From contig CAVVDJ010000007.1 of NCBI GenBank assembly GCA_963747025.1, positions 30,616 to 94,615 of the forward strand: a DNA stretch of 64,000 nt. Direction: 5' to 3'. This DNA is from an uncultured beta proteobacterium. GTDB taxonomy: Bacteria; Pseudomonadota; Gammaproteobacteria; Burkholderiales; SHXO01. The translations under genes and the position numbers were made by a program. The notes under the pieces are model-generated. The model did not search any database and had not been told where the DNA came from. It saw nothing but the letters and a program-made list of their open reading frames with translations. Every line of letters starts with the position of its first letter. The stretch's first letter is position 1. Below, piece after piece: positions 3,622 to 56,748 of this stretch.

Positions 3622-4452
3622 CTAGTTGGGAGTGCCAAGGAATGCGATTGTGTCGCCATCGACCAGCCATGCGCCGCGCCGCGTTGCCACGTACATGGGT
3701 TTGCGATGCAATCGACTCAGGAAGACGTGTGTTTCAGTGGGGGCGTCACTCAAGAGATGATTGAAGTACGCGCCAGCCGCCGTGTCCTGCGCTGGTAGGG
3801 CCAGGCAACCTTTTGAGAACGGTGTGACACTCAGAACCTTATCGCCCTTTGGTGACACATGAATACGATAGTACCCGCCCACAAGAATACGGCCCGGTTC
3901 CGCCGTTGCCGGGATCAAATACACAACCCAACCGGGGAGCTTCAGGGCATCACCCGGAAGCACGACGGTGTTGTACGCGCGGGAGCAGCGGGCCACCTCT
4001 GCGGATAGCGCCGTCTTGCGGGCCCGCCACATGGACCGCTGCTCTGATGTCGGAAGCTCTGCGGAGGCCGCAGGTTCGACAACGGGTGCGTCGGACGAGC
4101 CGTGCAGATGAACGCGATAAACGGGAAACGGCTCGTCGCCCTGCTCCCCGAAAAAGGTCACAGTCGAAGCCCCGCTGTCGCGGTCGACAAGCCAGCCACG
4201 GATAGGCGGGTCGCGACGGCCCGACGCGAACTCCTGCGCCGCGTCTGAGGCATCCGCCGTGTCGTTGTCGTAAAGGTAAAGAAGCTCTCCCACCTGACGC
4301 GCGGACTCGACGGCTTGGACAAGATCCCGCGGTATCGGCTTCGGCCGTATGGGGCCGGCCGCAGGCGCGCCTGACACGAGGACAACCTCCGCAAACAACG
4401 CGACCATCAGCCACAGGGCTATCCGCCGCGATACTGGTGCAATCCGCTGCAT
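3622..4452 (-). CDS. hypothetical exported protein
   Basis: 276 aa, signal-peptide-like N-terminus, RBS gagga upstream, two Cys, PTETHVFLS motif. Confidence 0.7.
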   Translation of the reverse strand: MQRIAPVSRRIALWLMVALFAEVVLVSGAPAAGPIRPKPIPRDLVQAVESARQVGELLYLYDNDTADASDAAQEFASGRRDPPIRGWLVDRDSGASTVTFFGEQGDEPFPVYRVHLHGSSDAPVVEPAASAELPTSEQRSMWRARKTALSAEVARCSRAYNTVVLPGDALKLPGWVVYLIPATAEPGRILVGGYYRIHVSPKGDKVLSVTPFSKGCLALPAQDTAAGAYFNHLLSDAPTETHVFLSRLHRKPMYVATRRGAWLVDGDTIAFLGTPN

Positions 4453-4646
4453 AGGCTATCCTCGTTTGCCCATCTGATCCCCCCGGTCCCCGATACCAGC
4501 ATACCGTGAGCTCGCTCACCGGTCTCACTTTTCAGGTATGGGTGTTCCCTCCTTTTCTTTGGTATTCACGTCCTCGAGCCAGACGGAAGACTTGTCCGGG
4601 CGTTGTTCACCCTTGACGATAGATACACCATTAGGCTCAGGCTGAC

Positions 4647-5198
4647 CTACTTCACCGGTTCCCAGTAGTTGACGAACCCTCCTAGAGTCGCCGTCATCTT
4701 GCTGGCTTCCGATACCTCCCCTTCCCATACGATAAATACGGGATCGATCGGATGCTGGTAGGACACGCGGCCGCCCTGCCTGGTAATCGGCATGCGTTTG
4801 GTTTCACCGCCCACGGCGTAGACCGGCGGCTTGCCGCTCCCATCGTCGAAGATCACTAGCAACGGTGTCGCAGCGACCTCGTTTTCGGACCACTCCCATT
4901 TGGTGATCGCCGATAAGGATGCGGACTTCCCCTCCGGGGTCGGCCAGAACACGATCAGCTGATTCACCCCGTTCTTGGTGCTGAAGCGCCCCTGAACCGT
5001 CGGTGGCGTTTGCACTGTGCCGTCTGGCAGCTTGCGCATCACCAACCGCCAGGTGCCATCAAGGTCGCCCGCATAGGCAAATACACCGAGCATCACGGAC
5101 AAGGTGAAGCCAGCGGCTAGGCGCTCCGACATCGCCCGAAAGAGATGCATGCGGTCCTCCGTCATGAAGGTGTGAGTTTGCAGCCAAGACCAAAGCAA
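4647..5198 (-). CDS. hypothetical exported protein (start may be downstream)
   Basis: Hydrophobic N-terminal segment ending AYA, then beta-rich body starting DLDGTWRLV (lipocalin-like GxW). Confidence 0.6.
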   Translation of the reverse strand: MLWSWLQTHTFMTEDRMHLFRAMSERLAAGFTLSVMLGVFAYAGDLDGTWRLVMRKLPDGTVQTPPTVQGRFSTKNGVNQLIVFWPTPEGKSASLSAITKWEWSENEVAATPLLVIFDDGSGKPPVYAVGGETKRMPITRQGGRVSYQHPIDPVFIVWEGEVSEASKMTATLGGFVNYWEPVK

Positions 5199-30550: not shown

Positions 30551-31024
30551 ATGATCGGGCTGCTCCAGCGCGTCAGCCAGGCGCGGGTCGAGGTCGAGGG
30601 CGCGGTCGTCGGCGCCATCGGCCCCGGTCTCATGGTGCTGGTCTGCGCCGAACGCGGGGACGGGACGGCGGAGGCCGACCGCTTGTTAGAGCGGTTGCTC
30701 AACTACCGGGTCTTCTCCGACGCCGAGGGGAAGATGAATCTCTCCCTGCGCGATGTCGACGGCGGTTTGTTGCTGGTGCCTCAATTCACTCTGGCTGCCG
30801 ACACGGGTAAAGGTAACCGCCCGAGCTTCACACCCGCCGCGCCACCCGAGCAGGGTCGCGCCCTGTTCGGCTACATGTTGGCGCAAGCGGGTGGCCGTTA
30901 CCCACGAGTTGCGGGCGGCCAATTCGGCGCGCACATGCAGGTCACGCTCACCAACGACGGGCCAGTCACGATCTGGTTGCGGGTGAGCCCACGAATCAGC
31001 TCCACCAAGCTCTCAGATGACTGA
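30551..31024 (+). CDS. dtd: D-aminoacyl-tRNA deacylase
   Basis: QRVSQA, GKMNLS, PQFTL, FGAHMQV, NDGPVT. Confidence 0.95.
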
Positions 31025-36327: not shown

Positions 36328-36503
36328 GCCGGGAGAGCGGGAGTCTGGGACTGCGAAATTGCGCGCCCTCTCGGGCGGATGCGAATGATCTTATCATCGT
36401 AATTGCCCCGGCTGTCGCCGCCGCGCATTTTTGTCCATAATCTCATGTCGTGGTCGAGAGCGTCGGACGCTGCGCGACAACCATTCGATCGAAGAGACCG
36501 GAG

Positions 36504-39500
36504 ATGAAACTTCTGAGCCTGTTTTCACGCCTGTCCGGGCGAACGCTGGTTCGGCGCCTTGCTCCGGCGCCCGAGGCAAGCCCGCGCGCAGCGCGGAAAG
36601 AAGCTGCTCAAGGTCGCGCCTATGGGTGGTCGGCCTGGTGGCGCTGTTCGCAGTGGTCGGATTCTTTGCCGTGCCGCCGATCGCCAAGCACTACCTGGTC
36701 AAGAGCTTGTCCGAGCTGTTGAACCGCCAGGTCGCAATCCAGGACATCAAGATCAACCCCTTCGCACTGACCGCCTCGGTGCGCGGGTTCTCGGTCAGCG
36801 AACCTGGCAGCTCCGAGGTATTCGTGTCCTTCGACGAGTTGTTCGTCGATCTCCAAGCCGAATCCGTCATCCAGCGCGGACCGATTCTGCGGGAGATCCG
36901 GCTCGAGCACCCCTTCGTTCACGTCGTCCGACGTGACGACGGTACCTACAACTTCTCCGACCTCCTTGTGAAATTCGCGAGCGGAAAGCCAGCCGCCGCT
37001 GATCAGGCGAAGCAGAAAGAGCAGCCGCGCTTTTCGCTCAACAATATCGAGGTGATCGCAGGCAAGGTGATCTTCGACGATCAGCCCAAGCAGGCAAAGC
37101 ACGCGGTGACCGATCTCGATATCGCCATTCCCTTTCTCTCCAACCTCCCGTACAGGCTGGACCAGTACGTCGTGCCGTCCTTCTCGGCCAAGGTGAACGA
37201 TACGCCGATTGCGCTGACCGGCCGCAGCAAGCCGTTCGCCACGCCTCCGGAGGCGCAGCTCGATGTGAACGTCTATTCGCTCGACATCCCCCGCTATCTC
37301 GAGTACCTCCCGGTCAAGCTCCCGTTCAAGATCCCGTCGGCCCTGCTCGAAACGCGGCTGACTGCGACCTTCATGCTCTATCCGGACAAGCCCCCGCTGC
37401 TGGTGCTCTCCGGCAAGGCGGCGCTGGACAAGTTCGCGATGACGCAGCTGGATGGACGCGCGCTGCTCAACTTCGCGCGGCTCGAGGTGCCGGTGCAATC
37501 CGCCACGGTCTTTGCACGCGACGTCAGTCTGGGCAATGTCGTATTGCAAAAGCCCGAGGTATTTGTCCGCCGCGAGCGCGACGGCAGTCTGAACTGGATG
37601 AGCGTCGTCCCCAAGAGCGCGCCTAACGGAAATGGTTCGCAGCCGAAGGAGACCGAACCAGAGCAAAGCGGGTGAGCCGCAGATGAAGCTTCACCTCGAG
37701 GAGGCCCGGATCGAGCAAGGCAAAGTCCACTTCGCCGACGAGGCCGCACCCAGGCCGTTCAAGACCGATATCGAGGGTCTGCTGGTCGTTCTGCGGAAAT
37801 TCGTGCTGCCGCAAGTCGACCCGGCCACGCTGGAGGTGGCACTCGGCACGACATTCGGAGAGAGCGTCAAGAGCGCCAGCACCCTGTTCGTCTCGCCGCT
37901 GAACGTCGACGGTAACCTCGAGGTACGCGGCGTAAAGCCGAAGAACTACTCCGCCTACTATGCGCATCTCATCCGTTTCGACGTCGAAGACGGAACGCTG
38001 AACCTGTCCACGCGGTTTCGGGCGGCGCAGGCAGGCCGGGACATCTCGGCGGTGGTGACCGGCTTGGACGCATCCCTCAGCAAACTCCGTCTACGCAAGC
38101 GAGGCGCAAAGGAGGATTTCCTCTCTGTCCCGGCGTTCGACCTGAAAGGCGTGGATGTGGATTCGGCGAAGCACACCGCTCAGGTGAGCGAGGTGTCGAG
38201 CAAGCAGGTACAGCTGCGCGCGGTTCGGGAGAAAAACGGAACGATAGACCTCACGCAGCTCATGGAGGAAGGCGCGGGCACCAAAGGAACCGCCCCTGTG
38301 CCGAATGCGGCGACGCAAAAGCCAGGCCAAGCGTGGCAATGGCTGGTGAAGAAGATCGCGCTCGACCGATACGCGGTCCGCTTCGAGGACCAGGTCCCGA
38401 CGCAGGCGGTTACGCACGTGGCGGAGCCAATCAAAGTCAACGTGGAAAATCTGTCCAACCGCGTTGGCTCGAATGCCAAGGTGGAAGTAGCTGTGGGTAT
38501 CAACAAGACGGGCAAGCTGCTCGTGTCCGGGCCGATCGGAATCAGTCCGCTGCAGGCGGATTTAAACCTCGATGTGCAGAGCGTGGACCTGGTACCGCTG
38601 CAACCCTATCTCGAGGACAAGCTCAATATCCTCGTGAGCAGCGGCGAGGCGCTGTTGCATGGCCGGTGGGAGCTCACGCCGCAGGAGCCGGGGCCGATGG
38701 CTACTCACTTCAAAGGCGAAGTCGGGATCAACAACTTCGCGTCCGTAGACAAGGCCACTTCCGAGGACTTCTTGAAGTGGAAGTCGCTCCACGTTGGCGG
38801 AATCGACGCGACGTACCGCGCTCTGGCGGCTGGGAAGTGGCTGTTTGAGAGCTCCGACGCCGATGCCGCTACACGTTCGCAGTTGTTCTCGCTACAGATC
38901 CGAGGAAGTGGCGCTTTCGGACTTCTACTCGCGTCTGATCATCTACCCGACCGGCAAGCTGAACGTGCAGAATATTTTGGCAAGCGGTGCGGATACACAA
39001 CCGACGGACGAGCCAGATACGGCTGAAGCAAAGGCTCAGGTCGGTGCGACGAACCAGACTTCACCCCCGGCAAAGCAAGACAAACCAACGAACCCGGCGC
39101 CAGCTCCCGCGGCACGAGGACTCACAGGCTGTGCCACAGCCACCGATCGCCATCGCCAAAGTCACGCTACAGGGCGGCAACGTCAACTTCAGCGACTTCT
39201 TCATCAAACCGAACTACTCGGCTAACCTGACCGAGATCGGCGGCTCGGTGACGGGATTGTCATCGCAGCTCGATACCACCGCCGACGTCGACCTGCGCGG
39301 CCGCTTCGCCAAGAGCGCGCCGGTCGAGATCAAAGGCAAGATCAATCCGCTGCTGCAGAACCCATACCTCGACATCAAAGCCAACGTGCGCGATATCGAG
39401 CTCGGACCGTTCACGCCCTACTCCACCAAGTACGTGGGCTACGCGATCGAGAAAGGCAAGATGTCTTTCGATGTCGCCTACAAGATCGAGAACCGCAAGC

Positions 39501-40336
39501 TCGCGGCCAGCAATCGGCTCACGCTCGACCAGCTGACCTTCGGCGAGAAGGTCGACAGCCCGACTGCAACCAAGCTGCCCGTGCTGTTCGCCGTAGCGCT
39601 GCTCCAGGACCGAAACGGCGTGATCGACGTCAACCTGCCCATCAGCGGCTCGGTAGATGATCCCAAATTCAGCGTCAGCGGCATCATCCTGCACATCATT
39701 TTCAACCTGATCGAGAAAGCAATCACCTCGCCTTTCGCACTGATCGGCTCGTTGGTTGGAGGCAGTGGAGAGGAGCTCTCCTACGTTTCGTTCGATCCGG
39801 GCCTGGCCGTGCTCGTCCCGGCACAGGAAGACAAGCTCACGAAACTGCAAAAAGCGCTTTCCGATCGACCCGCGCTGAAGCTTGACGCAACCGGTCACAG
39901 CGATCTGGAGAAGGATCGGGAAGGGCTGCGCCAAAATCGGTTCGAGCAGCAGCTGAAAGCGCAAAAGCTCAAGGACCTGGTCAAGAAGGGTTCGTCCGTA
40001 GCCTCGGTGGAAGAGGTCAAGATTGAGCCGCAAGAGTACGAAATGTATCTGAAGCGCGCTTACAAGGAGGCGAAGTTCCCGAAGCCGCGCAACGTGATCG
40101 GGTTCCAGAAGGACCTCCCGAAAGAAGAGATGGAGAAACTCATGCTGACCAACACCGTGGTCACGGACGACGATCTCATCCAGCTGGCCAACCGCCGCGC
40201 ACAAGCGACGAAAGACTTCATCACCCGCGGGGATCAGGTGCCCGTGGACCGGGTGTTTCTCCTCGCGCCCAAGCTGGACGCACCGAAAGGCGATGAAAAG
40301 CTCCCCGGCGCCCGCGTCGACTTTTCGCTCAAGTGA
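36504..40336 (+). CDS. DUF748 domain (AsmA-like) envelope protein, several frameshifts
   Basis: INPFALT, GTYNFSDL, FSDFFIKPNYSA, ALLQDRNGVIDVNLPISG, AITSPFAL, OmpA-like C-terminus LANRRA..RVDFSLK; pieces 36431-37675, 37632-39026, 38794-39225 and 38987-40336. Confidence 0.87.
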
Positions 40337-40347
40337 GGCGAGCCGAA

Positions 40348-40641
40348 ATGAAGCAGATTATCGCGATTCTGATCGCCGGCCTCGCGCTGACGGCACATGC
40401 GGCGGACCAGAAGAAGCCCGAGGCCGCGTCGGAGCCAGCCACAAAGGACAACTTCTTCGAGCGCGCCGCCAAAGCGATCGGCAAAGACGCCAAGGGTGCA
40501 GCGCACCAGGCGGGAAAGGCCTATAGCAAAGCCGGCAAGGACATCGGGCACGGCGCCAGCAAGACGGTCAAAGACGTCGGGCACGCAATGAAGGAGAGCG
40601 CCGACAAGACCGGCAAGCAAATCAAGGACACGGGGAAGTAG
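40348..40641 (+). CDS. small exported protein with 11-residue amphipathic repeats
   Basis: Signal peptide MKQIIAIL..AHA, five 11-mers (AAKAIGKDAKG and similar). Confidence 0.8.
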   Translation: MKQIIAILIAGLALTAHAADQKKPEAASEPATKDNFFERAAKAIGKDAKGAAHQAGKAYSKAGKDIGHGASKTVKDVGHAMKESADKTGKQIKDTGK

Positions 40642-41192
40642 GCTCGCTGGCCCCTACCCCTCGCGAGCTCCCAACTCTGCAATAGAGCTTCTAGCAGCGA
40701 GGCACGAGAGCCCTCCCGACTGGCCAGGGGGTTGCGCAGGACCTCAGAGGCCACGCGTCGTCATCCCTAGCGAGCCGCGTCTTCTCGCGGCCCGCGGTAC
40801 CCGCCTCCATCTATAACTTTCGGCAAGTTCTGATCTGCTCTCCCCCCGCATAGTCTGAGCGCATACGGCGGAATAGCTCCGGATCGCGTGGCTGGCTAAG
40901 CGCTGGATTTCGTTTCGAAAGGCAGATGCTGAATAGACTCCTCCCGTGGCAGATGATCTGGATGCCTCCAGCGTCGGGGTTGTCTGCCTATTTTATTGCT
41001 CCCGCGCCCGCATGGACGCGGTAAGACCAACATCAGCCCATAACAAGATTCTCTCCAGCTCAGGAGTTCAACATGGTCCCCTCAGGCCCTCGACCCGAAA
41101 GCGGCATCAACGCAAGGCCCGGCGGGACGCCTGGCGTCATTGAGGTGCAAGCCGAGGGACCTGCGGCCCGGGCCAGACCGCCCCAGGGAGAC

Positions 41193-42284
41193 ATGACAGC
41201 CATCAAGAATGGGCGCAAGATGACGGCGGCACTGGAGCCGCTGCCCATGAGAGTCCTATTGGCCGTCCATGGAGGTCTCTTCGCCGACGCGTTCAGCGGG
41301 GCGCTGACCAAACTCGCGCACCGAGTGCAAGTCGAGCGTTGTGACCCTGAGCGGCTCGACGACTTTGGCCCGCAGGACGGCTTCTCGCTGGTGCTGATCG
41401 ATGCGGACGCTGTATTGGCGCGCGCTGCAAGCTTGGTGCGCGGCTGTCGCGACCGTCTTCCCGGCGTGCCGGTGGTTGCACTGGCCAGCGCTCTGGACGA
41501 CGGTTTCATTGCCGGCATCATGAACGCCGGTGCCCAGGCCTACCTGCCCAAGACCTATCGCGAGACGCAGGCACTGGGCGTACTGCGGGTAGTGCTCGAT
41601 GGTGCGAGCCACCGGCCCCACGCGGACGCCGAACACAGTGCGGGCGATGCTCACGTGCCTGCCTTCGCGGCGGACGGCGGAAACGGCCGCCGGGCAGGAC
41701 CCAATCCGTATAGCCTGACCGGGCGTGAGCTCCAGGTTCTCATGCACGTCTGTGAGGGACGGTCGAACCTCAACATAGCGAAGCGCCTCAGCATCACCGA
41801 AGGCACCGTCAAAATCCATCTCAGCAACTCCTATAAGAAGCTCGGGGTAGAGAACCGCACTCAGGCGATCCGTATCGTCGAGCGCCTCGAGCAGGTGCAC
41901 AACATCTCGCTGCACGAAGCCGAGGAAGGCGTGTCGCTGCGCGATTGGCTTCTGCCGCATATGTCGGACGAATCCCATCACAAGGGAGAGATCCTGTTCC
42001 GGAAAGGAGATCCGGCGCGCGCCCTCTACTACATTCAGCAAGGCAAGGTAGCGCTGCCGGAGATCGGCAAGCAGATGGGCGAGGGTACTTTGTTCGGGGA
42101 GATCGGCATCTTCGCACCCGAGCATTCGCGCACGTGCAGTGCGCGCTGCGAAACCGACGCCCGCCTCTTCTGCTTGACCGCTGAGCGGGCCAAACGCCTG
42201 TACTTCGAGAATCCTCAATTCGCCTATCACGTAATGCAGCTGATCGCACAGCATCTGCTCGACGATCAGTCCCGTCGGCATTGA
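41193..42284 (+). CDS. transcriptional regulator: atypical REC + LuxR HTH + C-terminal cyclic-nucleotide-binding domain (alternative start 41073)
   Basis: LVLID..VVAL..GAQAYLPK receiver; LTGRELQVL..GRSNLNIA..TVKIH HTH; GEILFRKGD..GKV..FGEIGIF..RTCSA cNMP fold; one uninterrupted ORF. Confidence 0.88.
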   Translation: MTAIKNGRKMTAALEPLPMRVLLAVHGGLFADAFSGALTKLAHRVQVERCDPERLDDFGPQDGFSLVLIDADAVLARAASLVRGCRDRLPGVPVVALASALDDGFIAGIMNAGAQAYLPKTYRETQALGVLRVVLDGASHRPHADAEHSAGDAHVPAFAADGGNGRRAGPNPYSLTGRELQVLMHVCEGRSNLNIAKRLSITEGTVKIHLSNSYKKLGVENRTQAIRIVERLEQVHNISLHEAEEGVSLRDWLLPHMSDESHHKGEILFRKGDPARALYYIQQGKVALPEIGKQMGEGTLFGEIGIFAPEHSRTCSARCETDARLFCLTAERAKRLYFENPQFAYHVMQLIAQHLLDDQSRRH

Positions 42285-42328
42285 CAGGCCCCTGACCGCG
42301 CGCGGCGTAGTGCTGCACGACAGCCGCC

Positions 42329-44709
42329 ATGAACCCGCGCGCTTTTCTGGGTGTACCCTGGCTGACCTGGCGGCATGGTGTCATCGCCGGCCTGGTGCTG
42401 GCACTCCTCGGATCGGTGCTCACCGTCCTGCCGGCGCTTTGGCCGCTGCAGGAGAGCTTCGACCTTTGGCTCCTGTTCAAGCTGCGCGGCGGCAAGTCGC
42501 CACCCGACGATGTCGTGCTGGTCACGATCGACCAGCAGTCATCAGAGCGGATCACGCTGCCGAGCGATCCCGTCGCGCGAGACCGCTGCGTCGAATCTCA
42601 GGGTCGATGACGCGCCCGCCTCCCATGAGAAGCTGCCTCCGCCGCACTTCGTGATGCGCTGGCCCCGCTGCGTGCACGCCCTGGCGGTGCACGCGTTGGC
42701 GCAGGCGGGGGCACGCGCGATCGCACTCGATATTTCTTTTCGCCCATTACTGCCGAGCGGATCGGACAAGGGCCAGCGCTTCGCTGAAGAACAGGATCGG
42801 ACTCTGGCCGAAGCGATGGAATCGGCGGGAAACGTGCTGATCGCGCAATGGCTCGACCGGTCAGGCCAAGTCCGTCCGCAGAGCAGCAGACGAGCAGACC
42901 GACGGCGTGGAGCGACCGGCACAGATTAGCGCACTGATCGAATCGTCCGCACTCGGTGCGGCACCCTTACGCCTCGCCTATGGCATGGCCGGCCGTGTCA
43001 ACGGGTTCGCCGTCTTCAGCCAGGAAGACGGACCGATGTCGAGCATGCCGGCGCTGCTGCTGCACCGCTCCCACGCAGAGGTGCATTCGGACCTCGTCCG
43101 CCTGATCGCGAAGGCCAGGCCTGAGGACGCAGAACTGCTGCCGCGGACGGCCGAGGCTCTGGAACAGCGACGGCCACTCCAAGCCACTTCTCTGCTGATC
43201 CGGCATCTGGTTCGCTCGCAGCCGATTCTGGCGGACACCTTGCACGATGCTGCTGAACGAGTGAGGACAGCGCCGGATTGCCCGCGCAGCACCGCACCGC
43301 GTTGCGGGCGCTGGTCGATCTGTATGCGGGCGACCCGGTGCGGTATCTCAACTTCTACGGCCATCCGGGAACGTTCCGAAGCGTGAGCTATGCAGACGTC
43401 CTGAAACCTGGAGCTGGCAGCGCCGAGCAGCTAGCGCGTGAGGTGCGCGGCAGAACCGTGATTGTCGGCTACGTGGACTTCACCCCAGCTCAGCGCGACG
43501 ATCACTACCCGACGGTCTATACCACCACCGACGGCGTGAAGCTCAGCGGCAGCGAGATCCTGGCGACTGCACTCGCCAACCTCGCTTCGGGCAGCAGCCT
43601 GAAAGCTCTTACCGCTTCCGTGGCGAATGCTGGTGACGGCCTGCTTCGGGCTGGCACTGGCGTTGTTGCTCTTGGTCCCGCCGCCGGTGCGCGGACTTGT
43701 CGCCGGGTTCGCGCTGTGCGCCGTCTATCTCGGGCTGGCACTCCTCCTGTTCCGGGTCTCCGCCGTGTGGTTGCCGTTGCTGATTCCGCTTGCCTGGCAG
43801 GCGCCGGCCGGCATCCTGTATGCGATCGCCTATCACTACCGCGACATGCGGCGCAAGCGCGACGAGCTGCGCCGACTGTTCGGCAAGTTCGTTCCGGACC
43901 CGGTCATCGAAGGCCTGCTCGAGAACCGGGCGCGGCTGGACACCGTCAACGAGCCGGTGTACGGGGTTTGCCTTGCTACCGATGCCGAACGGTTCACCAC
44001 GCTGGCCGAGGGTATGCCCCCATCCCAGCTGGCGCGATTCCTCAACCGATACTTCGAAGCGGTCTTCCCGCCCATCACGGAGAAGCAAGGCGCCGTCGTC
44101 GACTTGATCGGCGATGCGGTCCTGGCGCTGTGGACCGGAGACGATGGCGAGAGCAGTCTGCATCTCAAAGCGTCCGGGGCTGCGCTCGAGCTGATGTCGG
44201 CAGTCGACCGGTTCAACGCGGCTTCGCCAACGCTCCGACTCCCGACCCGCATCGGGCTCTCGGGCGGCGAGGTGGCCACCAGCCCGATGGGAGCGGTCAA
44301 CCACTTCGAGTTCCGCCCAGTCGGGGATACCGTGGTCACTTCAGTTCGCCTCCAAGCGCTGAACAAGGAGTTGGGCACGCGCATCCTCGCAGCGGAGCCG
44401 GTGATCCGCGGGCTCGACGCGCTGCTGGTGCGGGACCTGGGGGTATTTCAGCTGCGCGGGAAGAACCTGCCCACACACGTCTTCGAAATCGTTGCCGAAC
44501 GCGAGAGTGCCAGCGCCTACGTCATGCAGCTCTGCCTGGAGTTCGCACTCGCCCTGGACGCTTTGCGCGGGGGCCGCCGCGAGGCCGCCCTGGAACGCTT
44601 CCGCGCCATCCAGGAGCGCTATCCCGACGACGGGCCGACGAGCTTCTACCTCCGCTGGCTGGCCGCCAACCCCTCGTGGGGCGGCGGTGCGATCCGACAG
44701 GCTGCTTGA
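42329..44709 (+). CDS. CHASE2 sensor + class III nucleotidyl cyclase (several frameshifts)
   Basis: N-terminal TM, VVLVTIDQQS, WPRCVHA, IALDISF, DRTLAEA, YLNFYG, SGSEILATALAN, three TM helices, TDAERFT, IGD, RIGL, GDTV, LRGK. Confidence 0.88.
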
Positions 44710-44895
44710 CTACCGCCTCGCAGCAGCGCCAGGTCACTCCTGTTACGGGTCACTTAGGACGAGCACCACAAGTGGCATACCTATGACCAAAGTCAGCTTG
44801 CATACAAGACTGAAAGGGTTTTACATAGAGCTTGCTTTCGGTCGTCATGCTTAGCCTTATGGAACCAGCAAGGTGCCAATGGGAGGGGGTTAAGG

Positions 44896-47800
44896 ATGTC
44901 GCGGTCGGGCGTCTCGATCTATGCACGGCTGGCGCTGGGGTGCGTCACTCCGGCGCTTTTGGCGGTGTGCGCAACGCCCACGCGCGCGACGGCTGCCGAC
45001 GTGCCTCCCGCATGCACGCCCATCGTGGCGCGGATCGTGTCTATGCAAGGCGTCGTCGAAATGCGCCGCGCGGGGCGGCAGGACTGGGCCCCGGTGACGC
45101 GCCTGGATACACCCGTGTGCCAGGGTGACGTCGTCCACGCAGGCCCACGCAGCCGTGCGGCGCTGGTCATCCTTCCCGAGAAATTTGTCCGGCTCGACCA
45201 GAATTCCACGGTCAGCATCAGCATTGAGGGCGACGAGACGGTAGTCGAGTTCTTCCAGGACGAGACCACGCCCAGGGATGCCTGCGGCGCGGGCTACTTC
45301 ATCACCCGGTTCCCGCGCAAGTTCAAGGTCCGCACCCCGTTCGTCAACGCGGCGGTGGAAGGGACCGAGTTCCTGGTCAGCATGAGCTGCAGCGCGACTT
45401 CGGTGGCAGTGTTCGAAGGCAAGGTCAGCGCCGAGACGCTGCTCGCCAACGCCGAGCGGTTTGTCTTGAGCAGCGGCGAAACGCTCTCGGCTGGCCCCGG
45501 TGAGCCGCCTGCGATCAAGGTGCTGGTCAAGCCGGTGGACGCTGTTCAGTGGGCGCTGTACTACCCACCGCTCAGCGCACCCGGGCCGGGCGTAGGACCA
45601 GACCAACAGTGCGACCAGTCCGCGCCAGACGAGAGAAGCCGCTGCCTCATGGTGCGCGCCGAGCAGCGCTTGCGGGTCGGACGGGTAGACGAAGCCCAGG
45701 CCGACATCGATGCCTCGCTCAAGCTCGCTTCCGGACAACAGCGACGCTGAAGCCCTGCTTTCAGTCATCGACGTGGCCAAGAATGACAGGCAGAAGGCCT
45801 TGGCATTGGCCCAGCACGCCACCCAGCTCGATCCAGTCAATCCGCGCGCCTGGATCGCGCTGTCCTATGCGCAGCAGGCCAGCTTCAAGCTGGAGGAGGC
45901 GCTGAGCAGCGCCGAGCGCGCGACCGAGCTAGAGCCGCGCAGTTCCATTGCATTGACACGTGTGGCTGAGCTGATGATGTCGCTAGGCAAGATCCGGTCA
46001 GCCGTGCGCGCCGCGCAAGCAGCCATCGATGCGAACCCCAATGACAGTCGTGCGCATACGATTCTCGGCTTCGTAAACCTGGCGGACATCGATATCAAGA
46101 AGGCCCGCGCAAACTTCGAAGCAAGCAATCGTCCGGGATTCAAGCGATCCGCTACCGCGCTTGGGGCTGGGGCTGACGATCATCCGCGATGGGGATCTGA
46201 AGGCAGGACGCGAGCAGATCGAGATCGCCGTCGCGCTCGATCCGACCAACTCACTCCTTCGAAGCTATGTGGGCAAAGCCTACTACGAGGAGAACACACC
46301 GGCGCGAGATAAGCTCGCCGCCATCCAGTTCGGCTTGGCTGAGCAACTGGACCCCAAGGACCCTACACCCTGGTTTTATGACGCAACCCTGAAGCAAACA
46401 CAGAACAGACCCGTCGAGGCCTTGCACGATCTGCAAGAGTCCATAAGCCTGAACGATAACCGCTCGGTGTATCGCTCAAGGCTCCTGCTCGATCAAGATC
46501 TAGCTGCGCGTAGCACTGAGCTCGCCACAACTTACAACACGCTCGGCTTTGGACAGCTCGGGTTGATCGAAGGCTCAAAGTCAGTCGATACCGATCCCAC
46601 CAACTACTCAGCCCATCGCCTATTGGCAGATTTATTCGTCGACTTCCCGCGACATGAAGTAGCGCGAGTAAGCGAGCTCTTGCAATCTCAACTGTGGGCA
46701 CCACTAACGCTTAACCCACTTCCGCCTCTACTGGCGGACGTGCACCCTTTGATACTTGCAGGTGCAGCTCCGAGCTCGGTAGGAATGAACGAATATGCAC
46801 CGCTTTTCACCAGCAATTCTGCCCTCGCTCAAGTCTATGCAGTCGCTGGCGGCCAAGGGACTTTGGGCGACCAGATCATCGTCTCTGGGCTCAGCAACAA
46901 CTTCGCCTTCAGCTTGGGACAACTGCACTATGAGACAAACTACTTTCGCGAGAACAGCAATCTCTCCAAGGATATCCTGAGCGGTCTATTTCAAACTGCT
47001 CCCAACTACGATACGAGCCTGCAACTCGAGGTTCGCGCGTCCGAGACGCAAAGCGGTGACCTCGCCTTCCGATTTGATCCTAACAACTTTTTCCCTACCC
47101 AGACTACCGTGGCGACGGAATTGGTACGCGTGGGCGGAAGATATCGGGTCGACAGTCAATCTGGCTTCATAGCGAGTCTAACTTCCCAGTCCCGCCGGGA
47201 AACAACCTCCTTCCAAGGGTTCCCATTCCTGGATGCCACAGCCCAGACCGGCAGCGGCGAGGCACAGTATGTGTACAACGCCCCCTCCTATTCCGCCATC
47301 TTGGGCGGAGGGCTGCTTGACGGTAACCTGAAAGGCGACTTCTCCTTCTTCGGTGCTCCATCCGACAACGATCTGCAAGGCCAAAACTACTACGCCTACG
47401 GGACACTGATCGACAGCAAGCTGAGGGCGCGCGTCGAACTCGGGCTCAGCTACGATCACGCCAGCGGTGTGGATATAGGGCCGTCTCAGAATGCAGTCAA
47501 TCCGAAATTTGGCTTGAGCTGGTCCCCGACGCCTGATCTCCTCTTGCGTCTGGCATGGTTCCGGGCGATGAAACGTCGATTGCTGGGTGAGCAGACACTC
47601 GAGCCGACGCAGATCGCTGGGTTCAACCAGTTTTACGACGACTTCAACGGAACGCAGGCGGAAACCAGGGGGATTGGCCTGGATTACGCACCGTCCCAAC
47701 GCGTCTTTGCAGGCGTGCAAATCTCATCGAGGCGCCTTAAGGTGCCGCAATCGTTCACGCAGTTTACCTATGATTGGTATGAGAACAGCGGTCTCGCCTA

Positions 47801-48221
47801 TCTGTATTGGGTGCTGAGCAAAGCTTTGGTGGTTACTGTCGACTACAGCTATGAGCGATTCGACCGTTCGGCCGATTTCATCGGAGTAGAGAGCTTTACC
47901 AAGGTTGTAACCCAGCGCGTTCCAATCTCCGTAAATTGGTTCCCTTTTGGACCGGGGCCGTGGACGATTAAGGTTACCTCCCAGTACGTCAACCAGCAGG
48001 GAGATTTTGTTGATGCGTCCGGAACGCCGTTCACGGGACAAAGCAACTTCTGGGTGACGGATGTCGGGATAACGTACCAGCTGCCGCAACGACACGGATC
48101 GTTGTCGCTGCAGGTCAGAAACCTATTCGATAAGAAGTTCCGGTTTCAGGAGACGAACTTTGCTACTCCGACCCTCTCGACAGGGCAACTCATATTGGCG
48201 CGCTTAGCGCTGCAGTTTTGA
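44896..48221 (+). CDS. FecR + TPR + outer-membrane beta-barrel (TonB-receptor-like, NsrA-like) protein (two frameshifts)
   Basis: Signal peptide, FecR motifs GD.V..GPRSRA..VRLDQNS and TPFVNAAVEGTEF, DAVQWALYYPP, TPRs, LNDNRSVYRSRLLLD, beta-barrel ending in Phe. Confidence 0.87.
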
Positions 48222-48316
48222 TGTTTTATGTCCCGAGCATGCGCATTCTATCGTCGTGCAAACAGCAAGACCGCATACTCGGTATCGTCGTGTTGTGCAG
48301 ACCAAGGGAGAAAGCT

Positions 48317-48875
48317 ATGAGCTTTGACACAGGAAATAGAGTAGCCAATGAAAACGGTTGGGATCGTTCCGAGCGCGCACGTCGCTTTGACTTCCGACCG
48401 GCTGGGTTGATGCGACACTTTTGCATCATCTTGTCCACACTCGCTCTCGCGGTGCCTTTGACCCTTCAAGCCGCGGGTACCGTCACAGATCAGAACGGCA
48501 GATCGTACGACGTGGAGATCGGCTACTACTACACTGCCGGAGGGAGGACTACTGTTTGCAGAGGAATATGGTTGGAGTTAAACGCACGATTCAGACAGGC
48601 TCGTGTTCGTCATGTGCCATTCCCTCGGACGTCGGCGTTCGGTCCCGAGCCGAGTTGTTTGACTACACGAGTGAGTAGACTGGGAGGCTCCGGCAAGCCG
48701 GCTGCATTCGTTGTATACGTGGCGCCCGACCCGAAGCGTGGGGTCGCACCCGTCATTACCGGAGCAGCTGGCTGCGGGCGAAACGCGCGGGGTCGACTTT
48801 GCAGCAACGGATGAATCCGCTTGCAAAGCGGGCCAACAGTGCATCCCCTGCTTTGGCGGCTGCTGTTGCAGGTGA
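48317..48875 (+). CDS. small exported protein, probably frameshifted, with a Cys-rich C-terminus
   Basis: RBS agggag before ATG 48317 (alternative 48410), signal-like FCIILSTLALAVPLTLQA; annotated frame stops at 48814, the shifted frame ends ACKAGQQCIPCFGGCCCR* at 48875. Confidence 0.5.
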
Positions 48876-51517: not shown

Positions 51518-54500
51518 CCAGTTCTCTGCAACAGTTCCTGTCCGGGCGACCTGACCCGTTTGTGCCCGGCTACCGCGTTCTAGCACGCGCGTGGGACGAT
51601 CTGCGCACGATCGTTTTCAGCGCCGAAGACCTGCGGACGGGCGCCCGCGTGCTGATCAAGGTGCCCAGGTCGCAGCATCCATCGGCACAGGACCTCGAGC
51701 AGCTGCGGCGCGACTACGAGATCGGCAAATCGATCGACTCCGAGCATGTTGTCAAACCGCTCGCCCACCTCGCGCATGAGGGCGGCCACTTCGTCATCGT
51801 CGACGACGACGGCTCACGGCCCATCGGCGAATCTTTCGATGCCGGTGGGCGGAGCCTGCTGCCGTCTCTGGAGTTCGGCGTGCGGCTCGCCGACGGCGGT
51901 CGAATCGCTGCACCGCTCCCATGTCATGCACAGGAACCTCAATCCGTACAGCATCTGGCTGCACCCGCGCGACTCGAGTATCCGGATCACGGACTTCTCG
52001 CTCGCCTCCAACGCGGCGGTTGAGGGGCCACGGCTCCAAAGCGCTTCGCGGCTGGAAGGAGATCTGCGGTACATCTCTCCGGAGCAGACGGGGCGCGTCA
52101 ACCGTGCAGTCGATTTCCGCAGCGACTTGTACTCGATCGGCGTGCTGATGTATCAGGTGTCTGCTGGGCGCGCCGCCATTCGACTCACAGGACGTGCTGG
52201 AAGTGATACACGCTCATCTCGCGCGCATTCCGCCCTCGCCGCATACGTTGAACCCGGCGATCCCCCCGCCGGTTTCCGACATTGTCATGAAGCTGCTGTC
52301 GAAGGCCGCAGAGGAACGCTATCAGAGCGCGCGGGGGTTGAAGGCGGATCTGGAGGAATGCCTGAATCAGTGGCGCGCGCGAGGCACCATCAGCGGCCTG
52401 GCAGTGGGCGCGCGCGATTCGTCGGCGTCCTTCCGGGTATCCCGCAGGCTCTACGGGAGGGGAGATCAGCTCGACTTCCTGCTGGAATCCTTTGATCGAG
52501 TGTGTCGAGGGATGACTGAAGTCGTTGTGGTGTCGGGCCCGCCCGGAGTCGGTAAGTCGCAGCTGGTCAAGGCTCTGCAAGGACAAGTCCGTGAGCGCGG
52601 CGCCTTCATCTCGTCCAAGTTCGATCAGTTCAAGAAGAACGAGCCTTACTCCTTCATCATTCAAGCGTTCACCGAGCTGGTAACGCAAATCCTCGCCGAA
52701 CACGACCAGCGCATCTCGCACTGGAAGCAAAGGCTGACCGAGGCTCTGGGGGCAAACGCGAGGGTGATCACGGAGGTGATTCCCGAGGTCGAGCTGATCA
52801 TTGGACCGCAACCGCCGATCCCCGAGCTCCCGCCCAAGGAAGCACGCAACCGGTTCAACCGCGTGCTGCGTCAATTCGTCCGGGTGTTCGCCAGAGATGA
52901 TCATCCGTGCTCCATCTTCCTCGACGACCTGCAATGGGTGGATTCGGCGTCCTTGAACCTGGTGAAGATTCTGGTGACGGACCCGGAGGTCAATCACCTC
53001 CAACTGATCGGGGCGTATCGCGACACCGAGGTTGGTGATTCCCACGACGTAATGCTTGCGCTCAATCAGTTGCGGGTCGCGAATGTCGAAGTGCGCGAGC
53101 TTCGGCTCGCTTGCCTCGACGTCGGTCAGGTTACCGATCTGCTGGTGGACACGCTTGGCTGCGAGCCTCACGATGCGCACCCCTTAGCGGAACTCGTACA
53201 CCAGAAGACGGGCGGCAACCCGTTCTTCGTCAATCAATTCCTCCTGTTCCTGCAGCAGGACGAGCTGATTCAGTTCGACTATCGCGCCGGCAAGTGGGTC
53301 TGGGATCTCCGCCGCATCTGGGCGCTGGGGATCACCGACGACGTGGTCGAGCTTATGAATCGCAAGCTCAACACCCTTCCCGCCTCTACACGTGAAGCGC
53401 TGAAGGTCGCAGCCTGTCTCGGCAACCGCTTCAATCTGGCCGATATCGCGCTGGCTCTGGAGGAGTCGGTGCACGTGGCCTTCGAGTCGGTTCTCGCAGC
53501 CATGCGCGAGGGACTTATCGTCGCCGCGGACGGGGAAGCCGGCGAGGGCATCGGCGAACGCGCTTTCGACCGGATCGTCGACGACGGATCATTGCGCGAC
53601 ACCGCGCTGCGCTTTCTGCACGACCGCGTTCAGCAAGCCGCCTACGCGCTGATCACGCCGGAGGACCGTCCGCGACTTCACTTCAAGATCGGAAGGCTGC
53701 TGCTCGCCAGCCTTTCCGCGAGTCAGCGCGAAGCGATCCCGTTCGCAATCCTCGACAACCTCAACTACGGCGCCGATCTCCTGCACAGCAGCCCGGAGCG
53801 AGAGGAGATGGCGAGGCTTAATCTGCTCGCCGGGCAGCGCGCTCGAGAGTCGACCGCCTACCAAGCCGCCCTTGCGTATTTCAGGAGCGGCATGCGGCTT
53901 CTGGACGACGCCAGCTGGAGCCAGCAGTACGAGCTCACCATGGCGCTTCATATCGAGCGCTTCGAATGCGCCTACATGACCGGGAGCTCCGAGGAAGCTA
54001 ACGATTTGTTCCGCGACGTCATCGCGAACGCCAGAACCAAGCCGGAGAAGGCAAAAGCGTACTATCTCAAGATCCTGCTCACCACCAGCCTGGACCGAAG
54101 CAGCGAAGCGCTGGCCCTGGGGTTCGAGGGGCTGCGCCTGTTCGGCCATTCCTTGCCCGCCAACCCGTCCAAGCTGCATCTGTTGCTCGAGATGTGCAAG
54201 GTCATCGCCCTGCTCAGGGGAAGGCGCGCATCCGATCTGTTGCTCCTGCCGCGCATGCGCGATCCCGACCGCCAGGCGACCATCAGCTTGTTCATGAGCA
54301 TCTGCCCCCCGGCTTATTTCCGCAACACCGACCTGATGGCGCTGTCGGCGCTGAAGATCATGTCGATGTCCGTGCGTTACGGCAACACCAGCGTGTCGCC
54401 CTATGGCTATGCGATATACGGTCTGGTGCGCGGCGGTGTGTTCGGCGACTACAAGACCGGCCACGAGTTCGGCCAGCTGGCAGCCAAGCTCGCGGGGGAA

Positions 54501-56748
54501 GACACCGATCTGGTGCAGCGGTGCAAGGTCCAGCTGCTGTTCTGGGGTTTCGTCAACTACTGGCGCCGGCCCGTCGAAGGCAGTGTCTCGATGCTGCGCG
54601 AAACCCTGAAGCTCGCACTCGATTGCGGCGAGCTCCAGTACGCGAACTATTGCATCCTGCAGATCATCTTCTTGAGCCTCGCTCGCGGCGCGAACCTGGA
54701 TGACGTCTACACGGAGTGCACCGGCTTCGAGAGCTTCGTCAAACAGACCAACGACGGGTTCACGATCGCAAGTCAGTGGATTCGCAAGCGCGGAATTCTC
54801 GCCCTCAAGGGCAGCACCCTGGCGAACGACAGCCTCAGCGATGAGGAGCACAGCGAGGACAGCCTGGTCGAAAAGTGGCGCTCGGCAGGTAACCTGACTA
54901 CGCTTTCCTACTACTACATCGTCAAGCTCCAACTGGGGTACCTGTTCGCCAACTACAGCTCGGCTTACCGCTTTGCGCAGGTCTCGGAGGCGCAGATCAA
55001 AGAGGCCCTGAGTCAGATCTGCGTCGCCGAGCACTACTTCTACTGGGGGCTGACGTCGGCCGCGTTGATCCGGCAGCAAGGCAAACGCGATCGGACACTG
55101 TGGCGCCGCGTCGCGCGCTGCCGCGCGAAGCTGCGTCATTGGGCAAGGAACTGCCCCGAGAACTTCGAGCATCAGTATCTTCTGCTCGAAGCCGAAATCG
55201 CGTCCTTGCGCGAACGGACGGTCGAGTGCGAGCGCATGTATGACCGCGCCATTGCATCTGCTCGGTCCCAGGGGTTCAGTCACGTCGAAGGCACAGCCAA
55301 CGAGTTGGCCGCTCAGCATTATCTGAGGACCCGGCGGCCTCATATCGCTCGGGTCTACTTCCAGGCGGCGAGGGGCGCGTTCTCGCGCTGGGGCGCAACG
55401 GCCAAGGTGAAGCAGCTCGACGCCGAGTTTCAGGGCCGTCTCGTCGAGGGGCCGCAGGGCTCTGCGGCGGAGCCACAGCCCAAAAGTGAGGCGACGCCGC
55501 CCGCCTTGGCGAACCTGATCGATGTTGACCTGCTGATGAAGGCGTCGGCTGAGCTGTCAGCCGAGATGGAGTCGGAACGGCTGCTGCTCAGATTGCTGCG
55601 CTTGATACTCGAGAGCGCGGGCGCTCAGTCCGGGTGCTTCGTCGTGGACGAGGAGGGTCAGCTGCGCGTCGAGATCGCGTGCCTTGGGGACGGAAACCAG
55701 ACGAGCCGTGCTGCGCGCCCTTCCGGTGGACGACGCTCATCTCTCCGGTCAAATCGTCAGATACGTCCTGCGGACGGGACAGCAGCTGGTGATCGACGAC
55801 GCTACGATGGACGTGCGATTTGCCAATTGTCCGTACATTCGCTCCGCGCGGCCGCGATCGGTCCTCTGTTCCCCGCTCAGCAAGAACGCCCAGGTGATTG
55901 GCGCCCTGTATCTGGAGAACCGATTGACTCCGGGGGCGTTCACGGCAGAGCGTCTGCCCTCGCTGCGGCTGCTGTCGCAGCAGGCCGTGCTCGCGATCGA
56001 AAATGCCACCTACTACCGCAAGCTCAAACTGAACAACGATGCGCTGCAGGCTGCGCTGCAGAAAGTGGAGATCCTGGAGCGAGTCCGCACCCACCTGACC
56101 AAGTTCGTCCCGCAATCGCTGCAGCGCCTGATCGAGGCGAACCCTGAGCAGCCCGATCTCGAGGTGCACGACGAAGATGTCTCGATCGTGTTTCTCGACA
56201 TTGCGGGCTACACCCGCATGAGCGAATCCGTCGACCCGCAACAGGTCGGCACCCTGGTGGAGACCTACTTCTCGAGTTTTCTGGATGTCATCAACAGCAA
56301 CAAGGGCGACGTCAACGAAGTCCTCGGAGATGGGTTGATGGTCATATTCCGCCACCCTGATCCAACTGAGCATCCGGTGCTGGCTGCCCGCGCGGCGCTC
56401 GGCATCCGGGACCGGACCAAGCAGCTCAACGCCGCGTTGCGCGGCACCTTGCCCCCGGTCACGATCAACATCGGGATCAACTCGGGAATCGTGAGCCTGG
56501 GCGCGAAAAAGATCCAGAGCACGTTGGGCACGCGCTGGACCTATGCCGCTAGCGGAACGGTGACGAATCTCGCCGCGCGGATCGGTGCGTCGGCGACCAA
56601 TGGAGCCATCCTGGTAAGTGAGGTTACGGCACGGCGCATGGCGGGGCGCTTCGAGCTGCTGGATCTCGGCCCGCAGCGATTCAAGGGTGTAGCCAAGCCG
56701 ATCTCGATTTCCCGCATCGTCGGCGAGCGAGCCGAGGAGCGGCTATGA
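51514..56748 (+). CDS. multidomain Ser/Thr kinase-like + AAA(STAND) ATPase + helical region + GAF + class III nucleotidyl cyclase (three frameshifts)
   Basis: YISPEQTGRVNRAVDFRSDLYS, LYGR, SGPPGVGKS, FLDDLQWVD, TGGNPFF, FLHDRVQQAAY, GAF LYLENR..GAFT, cyclase FLDIAGYT, LGDG, IGINSG, NLAAR. Confidence 0.88.

Follow-up and report, generated by a model that had tools for sequence, protein, structure and literature searches.

The window considered here is a stretch of 64,000 nucleotides from an uncultured beta proteobacterium (GenBank assembly GCA_963747025.1, contig CAVVDJ010000007.1, forward-strand positions 30,616 to 94,615; G000:C7:30616-94615), and coordinates are counted from its first letter unless another contig is named. 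It encodes a predicted transcriptional regulator in which a degenerate receiver (REC) domain, a LuxR/GerE helix-turn-helix (HTH) and a cyclic-nucleotide-binding domain (CNBD) follow one another in a single open reading frame (ORF). The regulator gene is followed by genes for a CHASE2-domain class III nucleotide cyclase and for an outer-membrane protein (OMP) that combines FecR and tetratricopeptide repeat (TPR) domains with a beta-barrel (Table 1). A gene for a DUF748/AsmA-like envelope protein is the conserved upstream neighbor in the window's clade, and Pfam assignments on the intact genes of one orthologous locus (L002) give the order DUF748/AsmA-like, regulator, CHASE2 cyclase, FecR-TPR-OMP. 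The regulator is single-copy in the window's own genome. Its stop codon occupies 42282-42284 and the next ATG is at 42329, which leaves a 44-nt spacer.

Table 1. Features of the regulator locus, with coordinates in the window; cNMP, cyclic nucleoside monophosphate; pLDDT, predicted local distance difference test score.
Feature	Position	Strand	Remarks
DUF748/AsmA-like large envelope protein	36620..40336	+	1290 aa in orthologues; four frame pieces here
Hairpin (40948-40988), then U-rich run	40948..40998	+	-28 kcal/mol, z -2.5, then UAUUUUAUU
Regulator gene	41073..42284	+	403 aa; single unbroken ORF; N-terminal extension, pseudo-receiver, linker, LuxR/GerE HTH, cNMP-binding domain
N-terminal extension	41073..41246	+	58 aa; Pro/Ala/Gly-rich; weakly conserved except for M-[VLA]-P-S and an NGRK motif
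Pseudo-receiver, REC fold	41247..41606	+	Keeps D110 and K160; lacks the acidic pair (V65, H66) and Thr/Ser (A138)
Disordered linker, receiver to HTH	41613..41699	+	pLDDT <50 at core residues 123-151; alignment variable
LuxR/GerE HTH DNA-binding domain	41712..41876	+	Pfam PF00196, residues 214-268, E 9.6e-18
Cyclic-nucleotide-binding beta-barrel	41973..42209	+	Pfam PF00027, residues 301-379, E 1e-14; C-terminal helices continue to 42281
Phosphate-binding cassette	42093..42143	+	FGEIGIFAPEHSRTCSA; aligned to the HCN2 and GlxR cassettes
CHASE2 and class III nucleotide cyclase	42329..44709	+	792 aa in intact orthologues; five frame pieces here, 1-2-nt indels; Pfam CHASE2, Guanylate_cyc
FecR-domain, TPR, outer-membrane beta-barrel protein	44896..48221	+	1121 aa in orthologues; three frame pieces here

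The initial annotation had described one uninterrupted ORF that begins at 41193. The ORF is unbroken as described, but 41193 marks only an in-frame 3' part of it. We take the start to be 41073 because an ATG that yields an extension of 58-60 aa, with a GGAG-type site (AGGAG) 5' of it, is found in 7/9 orthologous loci, because L005 lacks the ATG at 41193, and because gaps within the extension in the DNA alignment of these loci are multiples of three. The conserved core of the regulator family begins at 41247. Within the extension, the nucleotide block GACAG...AATGGGCGCAAGAT (41193-41235; alignment columns 715-745), which encodes NGRK, is near-invariant in 7 loci, wobble positions included. The constraint on this block may act on the encoded peptide, on the mRNA or on DNA as a protein-binding site. 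An operator or a sigma-54 site was considered here; the block does not fit the sigma-54 spacing.

The PF00027 match to the regulator scores 54.7 bits against a cut-off of 27.5, and the matches of the HTH among sequences of solved structures in the PDB include ChrA, VraR and NarL. The HTH is not C-terminal. It is followed by 135 residues, and the cNMP-binding domain with the motif FGEIGIF..RTCSA that the initial annotation had placed after the HTH is found there. Pfam Response_reg has no match in the regulator at E ≤ 0.01. The NCBIfam model for ErdR (NarL/FixJ-type) aligns residues 66-275 to model positions 9-211 of 213 at a score far below its cut-off, the CRP model covers residues 290-398 only (36.5 bits against a cut-off of 266), and the CsgD match falls on the HTH.

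Structure prediction, which the initial annotation had proposed as a check, recovers a receiver fold, the HTH and a CNBD barrel. The AlphaFold2 (AF2) model was built from a 109-row alignment of the conserved core and has a mean pLDDT of 79.6 and a predicted template modeling score (pTM) of 0.41. It places a five-unit beta-alpha receiver first (pLDDT 83-96 over core residues 1-120), followed by a disordered linker, the HTH, two connecting helices, the CNBD barrel (core residues 240-311) and C-terminal helices. Foldseek matches the receiver and HTH to LiaR, VraR, ChrA, VpsT (3klo, 3kln), RcsB and EvgA, and the barrel to CRP, MtbCRP, GlxR and the CNG/HCN channels. A homodimer prediction scored 0.01 (mark 0.42), which gives no verdict and was not used as evidence.

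A fusion of this kind could be an assembly artifact in which an indel joined a LuxR gene to a separate cNMP-binding gene, and the assembly is indeed rich in indels. Three neighboring genes carry 9 frame changes from 1-2-nt indels, with all of their pieces 43-87% identical to intact L002 proteins, and rpoB (G000:C11:21044-25099) is spread over three frames. In a closely related metagenome-assembled genome (MAG; L007) the frame changes fall at other positions. The window's genome comprises 3.52 Mb in 16 contigs at a completeness of 77.5%, and its completeness and contig number fit an unpolished long-read MAG. The regulator gene, however, is unbroken in six MAG contigs with MEGAHIT-style (k141) names (L001-L006), in metagenome contigs and in 21 other species genomes; the L002 protein, for example, aligns end to end and without gaps at 84% identity over 345 aa. 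This explanation is already refuted, and we give it practically no weight. The frameshifts in 36431-48221 are assembly indel errors rather than pseudogenes, and the regulator escaped them. The initial annotation placed the cyclase gene correctly and overlooked that it is broken in this assembly, where tblastn aligns it as pieces at 42329-42595, 42594-42857, 42883-43257, 43266-43610 and 43603-44703. A reading of this split cyclase as a pseudogene was rejected because rpoB is likewise split and because the pieces are 80-84% identical to the intact L002 protein and have no internal stops. Calls of 'pseudogene' or 'split gene' in this genome need comparison with relatives.

The regulator family is real, conserved and uncharacterized. 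A search of 5.8 billion clustered proteins returned 194 matches at E ≤ 1e-3. PF00196 and PF00027 occur together in 116 of the best 120 of these 194 (39-100% identity), and at least 109 full-length cluster representatives have the same layout (39-94% identity). In the ESM Atlas, a single cluster of 130 'hypothetical proteins' has both domains throughout (100% of members). A profile search of 1.84 billion representatives (50% clustering) gave 568 matches at E ≤ 1e-30. Single-stretch matches that span the profile (from position ≤35 to position ≥355) make up 51 of the best 150, and shorter proteins (200-305 aa) that match the HTH and CNBD part only make up a further 32 of the best 150. Of these, 11/11 fetched start with Met and a short nonreceiver leader. 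The REC-less forms retain the HTH and a CNBD with an intact cassette, which argues that HTH plus CNBD is the functional core. The initial annotation's view of a NarL-like protein rewired from phosphorylation to cyclic-nucleotide control presupposes a direction of evolution that is conjectural, and REC-less relatives exist.

The genome samples were searched with only the five best candidates per genome scored. In the same order, 22/401 genomes match at E ≤ 1e-30, in 7/167 genera; one of these 22 is the window's own genome and another is G026, flagged as unpublished. In the phylum-wide sample, 0/400 other genomes match at E ≤ 1e-25. Family members are annotated as 'NarL' or 'LuxR C-terminal-related' regulators, and such annotations hide the link to cNMPs. 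The initial annotation had called the architecture unusual, and the literature search, which left most subscription journals outside its reach, found no description of a GerE/LuxR HTH fused to a cNMP-binding domain. One paper names both Pfam domains, but in different proteins (PMC10469919), and a second also contains the two names (PMC1858693).

The receiver was initially described as having lost its acidic pocket (VLLAVH) while keeping the phosphorylation-site Asp (LID) and the Lys (YLPK). These motifs are present, and the degeneracy is family-wide. Residues were counted in 109 family sequences of at least 330 aa from the 120 listed matches. The first acidic position is Asp in 0/109, the second is Asp in 2/109 and Glu in 9/109, and the Thr/Ser position is Ala in 61, Gly in 37 and Ser in 6, which puts Ala or Gly there in 98/109. 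D110, the phosphorylation-site Asp, is kept in 107/109 and K160 in 100/109. The 13 members with a PF00072 match likewise lack the acidic pair. Alignment with eight canonical NarL-type regulators shows the same pattern, with Asp-Asp replaced by (V/A/T/S)(H/Q/P), Ser replaced by Ala or Gly, and the beta3 Asp and beta5 Lys retained. On these residues, the receiver is predicted to be incompetent for phosphorylation. The window contains no HATPase_c match, consistent with the earlier statement that it encodes no histidine kinase.

The phosphate-binding cassette has G342, E343, R353 and A357 in 109/109 sequences, with Thr (101) or Ser (8) at residue 354. This invariance argues for a nucleotide ligand, and the CNBD is accordingly best described as a putative cyclic nucleotide receptor. 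The initial annotation noted that Arg-Thr favors cyclic GMP (cGMP) in PKG and CNG channels, though it is not diagnostic in bacteria. The Arg-Thr of the cassette aligns with the same pair in GlxR bound to cyclic AMP (cAMP) and in HCN2, both of which are PDB matches of the domain along with CRP; it was therefore discarded as an indicator of cGMP, and no specificity is assigned from it.

Linkage was counted, leaving out the window itself, wherever a family regulator is followed by 1.5 kb of sequence or more. The order regulator, CHASE2 cyclase, FecR-TPR-OMP is present at 20/32 such places (6/6 in genome contigs, 4/9 in metagenomes and 10/17 in species genomes) and persists across regulator identities of ~35-93%. 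Two places where the sequence ends sooner (L006 and L048) reach into the start of the cyclase gene as well. A complete, one-contig genome (G034) holds two separate cassettes, and tandem regulator duplicates occur upstream of one cyclase at L135 (G045:C22) and L136 (G189:C149), and also at L059 and L061. In these tandem duplicates the match to the second copy begins only at about residue 47-60, and the receiver N-terminus of that copy is divergent or shortened. The regulator, cyclase and FecR-TPR-OMP genes are probably cotranscribed. The cyclase 44 bp downstream had been proposed as the source of the regulator's signal; in the family, the regulator is often but not always accompanied by this cyclase.

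The two best-scoring solved matches to the cyclase domain are both Synechocystis Cya2 (the engineered fusion 6FHT, an E488K form, and 2W01). In the portions of the reports available, Cya2 is regulated by CHASE2, has the specificity pair Glu/Gly and makes cGMP (PMC5995499, PMC4215837), and its E488K variant makes cAMP (PMC5995499). The Glu/Lys position of Cya2 is Asp in the window cyclase and the second substrate position is Arg, in three alignments. The comparison of cassette cyclases covered the window (43846-44550), L001-L005, L007, L049, L056, L058, L063, L128-L137 and L140. The linked cyclases have the substrate pair Asp/Arg in 21/21, and both metal-binding Asp residues and the transition-state Arg are also kept in 21/21. 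Adenylate cyclases have Lys/Asp(Thr) at the substrate positions, and in guanylate cyclases Glu is paired with Cys, Ser, Thr, His, Ala or Gly, according to the accessible part of one study (PMC4215837). Asp/Arg matches neither pair and is thus noncanonical for both activities. This invariant pair is a testable lead on nucleotide specificity.

The reading that we favor, and consider reasonably probable, is that cNMP binding gates the regulator as a LuxR-type transcription factor, that its receiver is incompetent for phosphorylation, and that the protein forms the output of a relay from the FecR-TPR-OMP and the CHASE2 cyclase. In this relay, the FecR-TPR-barrel OMP and the inner-membrane cyclase would convert a cue from the envelope or from outside the cell into a 3',5'-cyclic nucleotide, which could then dock on the C-terminal CNBD through the intact Gly-Glu...Arg-Thr cassette. 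The helices that flank the barrel start directly after the last HTH helix. If they move when the nucleotide binds, then dimerization or exposure of the LuxR HTH may change, and its binding to DNA at putative target genes would be altered. The receiver would no longer act as a phospho-switch and might instead be a structural, dimerization or autoinhibitory module, as in VpsT or CsgD.

Several observations weigh against this reading. The AF2 model has no confident interdomain packing (pTM 0.41), and the allosteric route is therefore conjecture. In the receiver, D110, a second Asp two residues on (D112, 102/109) and the Lys are strongly conserved, which is unexpected for a purely structural domain, and some phosphorylation or metal binding is possible. 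The same conservation would suit a dual-input integrator in which an orphan kinase or a small phosphodonor still phosphorylates D110 and this signal is combined with cNMP binding; the REC fold is confidently predicted, and there are 31 HATPase_c matches elsewhere in the genome. We nevertheless consider such an integrator improbable, given that the family as a whole has lost the Mg2+-binding acidic pair along with the Thr/Ser switch residue and that REC-less forms occur. The window has no histidine kinase, and no kinase turned up in tblastn and Pfam looks at related places, which did not amount to a systematic kinase screen.

Two further points concern the pairing with the cyclase. No CHASE2 cyclase follows the regulator at 12/32 places, where the neighbors are unrelated (an M20 peptidase, a GGDEF protein and an enolase-type enzyme are among them). 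In the window's genome, Guanylate_cyc is matched 15 times and cNMP_binding 14 times, and the pairing therefore need not be exclusive. Both points could be explained if the cNMP-gated LuxR factor reads a cell-wide pool or the product of another cyclase, with the CHASE2 cyclase as a frequent rather than a dedicated partner. This alternative deserves serious attention but is unlikely in view of the linkage at 20/32 places over so wide a range of regulator identities, the two independent cassettes in one genome, the tandem duplicates that stay 5' of the cyclase, and the 44-nt spacer, in which no terminator-like fold was found. A possibility that we regard as rather doubtful is that the product of the Asp/Arg cyclase is not cAMP but cGMP or a pyrimidine cNMP, and that the LuxR-CNBD protein is its dedicated receptor. 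The two would then form a private channel that keeps one envelope signal apart from more than 10 other cyclase/CNBD pairs of the cell. If this is true, then the LuxR-CNBD protein would stand for a new class of transcription factors that depend on cNMPs, and the cyclase for a class III group with a new substrate specificity.

The cyclase itself provides the last point against the proposed relay. Its transition-state Asn is present in 13/21 linked cyclases and is replaced by Val in 8/21 (the window, L001-L005, L007 and L049), a change that could lower or abolish cyclase activity. A Xanthomonas guanylate cyclase that lacks both the Asn and the Arg is active, as stated in the available part of its description (PMC3770947), so the Val is no proof of inactivity. 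The Val in the window's clade and the noncanonical specificity residues might also be expected if the CNBD-like domain binds another ligand, or serves dimerization only, and does not bind a 3',5'-cNMP. Many CRP/FNR-fold domains bind other ligands (FNR, CooA and Clp-type members), which speaks for this explanation. It is nonetheless quite improbable, since the positions that hold the cyclic phosphate in solved cNMP complexes are conserved in 109/109 sequences (G, E, R, A, and T or S at the remaining one), the cassette aligns to those of cAMP-bound GlxR and of HCN2, and the domain is genetically linked to a cyclase.

The proposed cNMP relay is best read, by analogy, as following the logic of NsrA-CyaK-Clr from Sinorhizobium in variant form, with a receptor of new architecture. 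The available parts of the S. meliloti reports describe the OMP NsrA and the CHASE2 cyclases CyaK, CyaD1 and CyaD2 as feeding the CRP-type regulator Clr (PMC7529298, PMC5498481, PMC10127613, PMC13001267). On this partial account, the two systems have in common an outer-membrane beta-barrel protein of ~1100-1200 aa as the actual or putative receptor, a CHASE2 class III cyclase in the inner membrane and a transcription factor with a CNBD, and the S. meliloti circuit likewise includes FecR-domain and TPR proteins (PMC7529298, PMC5498481, PMC10127613). Clr is a classical CRP with an N-terminal CNBD and a C-terminal winged HTH, whereas here a pseudo-REC, a LuxR HTH and a C-terminal CNBD are joined; unlike in the S. 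meliloti relay, the cyclase here has Asp/Arg at the substrate-specifying positions. A tblastn search with the FecR-TPR-OMP (1121 aa) found no match in 72,556 plasmid records at E ≤ 1e-5, with no NsrA sequence directly compared.

In Campylobacterota, a CHASE2 cyclase is clustered with a FecR-domain OMP and a TPR protein in one proposed pathway, according to the part of the report that was accessible (PMC9239204). The cluster described in that part contains a phosphodiesterase and no LuxR-CNBD regulator, whereas FecR, TPR and barrel form one protein here and no phosphodiesterase was seen in the cassette. The Xanthomonas guanylate cyclase XC_0250 offers another parallel. Within what is available of that study, it is linked to its own CNBD receptor, the cNMP-binding GGDEF protein XC_0249; this receptor is an enzyme rather than a transcription factor, and XC_0250 lacks CHASE2 (PMC3770947).

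Among cNMP-controlled transcription factors, CRP, GlxR, MtbCRP and Vfr have the same CNBD fold and cassette, and GlxR also has the Arg-Thr. The CRP/FNR layout, with an N-terminal CNBD, a long dimerizing C-helix and a winged HTH, is not the one found here. The order is reversed, with a tetrahelical LuxR/GerE HTH before the CNBD, and a pseudo-receiver is added. A parallel for the receiver lies in VpsT of Vibrio cholerae and in CsgD, which have a NarL/FixJ-type layout and a receiver that is not a phospho-switch; VpsT is controlled by cyclic di-GMP (c-di-GMP). The regulator shares this REC-LuxR layout and, putatively, a receiver without phospho-switch function. VpsT binds c-di-GMP on its receiver and has no extra domain, whereas here a separate CNBD comes after the HTH.

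The cNMP-dependent bacterial transcription factors reviewed in the papers cited here are members of the CRP/FNR family. If a LuxR-type factor does the same job through a C-terminal CNBD, bacteria would have built a second solution independently. Such a factor would show a second messenger taking over the two-component response regulator scaffold by the accretion of a domain, unlike the receiver-surface binding of VpsT. With the FecR-TPR-barrel OMP and CHASE2 cyclase as built-in partners, the whole CHASE2 path from input to output could be reconstituted from four genes. To our knowledge, the signal that CHASE2 domains perceive is still poorly understood.

The hairpin upstream of the regulator is likely the intrinsic terminator of the upstream unit. 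Its inverted repeat (40948-40988) is conserved in the window, L001, L004 and L049; a simple terminator scan did not list it. The hairpin with its U-rich run lies ~75 nt upstream of the regulator start, and with a terminator at this position the regulator would open a new transcription unit. A sigma-70 promoter scan of 40300-48600 gave 0 sites against 1.5 expected. The 24 sequencing runs listed each contained ≤0.08 of the sampled words, with no RNA run among those listed. Between the DUF748 gene and the putative terminator lies a small ORF (40333-40641, + strand, 102 aa) with a signal-peptide-like start, a Lys/Ala-rich body and no Pfam match.

Two other places contain related signaling domains. 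At L079, a CNBD protein (4017-4676, - strand) that matches only the C-terminal part of the regulator is encoded ~3 kb away from the gene of a class III cyclase whose pair is Glu/Gly, as in the guanylate cyclase Cya2. Farther downstream in the window, at 51746-56748 (+ strand), ORF pieces in a row encode a Ser/Thr protein kinase domain, an AAA_16 (STAND-type) ATPase of 1317 aa, and a GAF domain with a class III cyclase. These pieces may be one or two large multidomain signaling genes that are split by the same indel errors.

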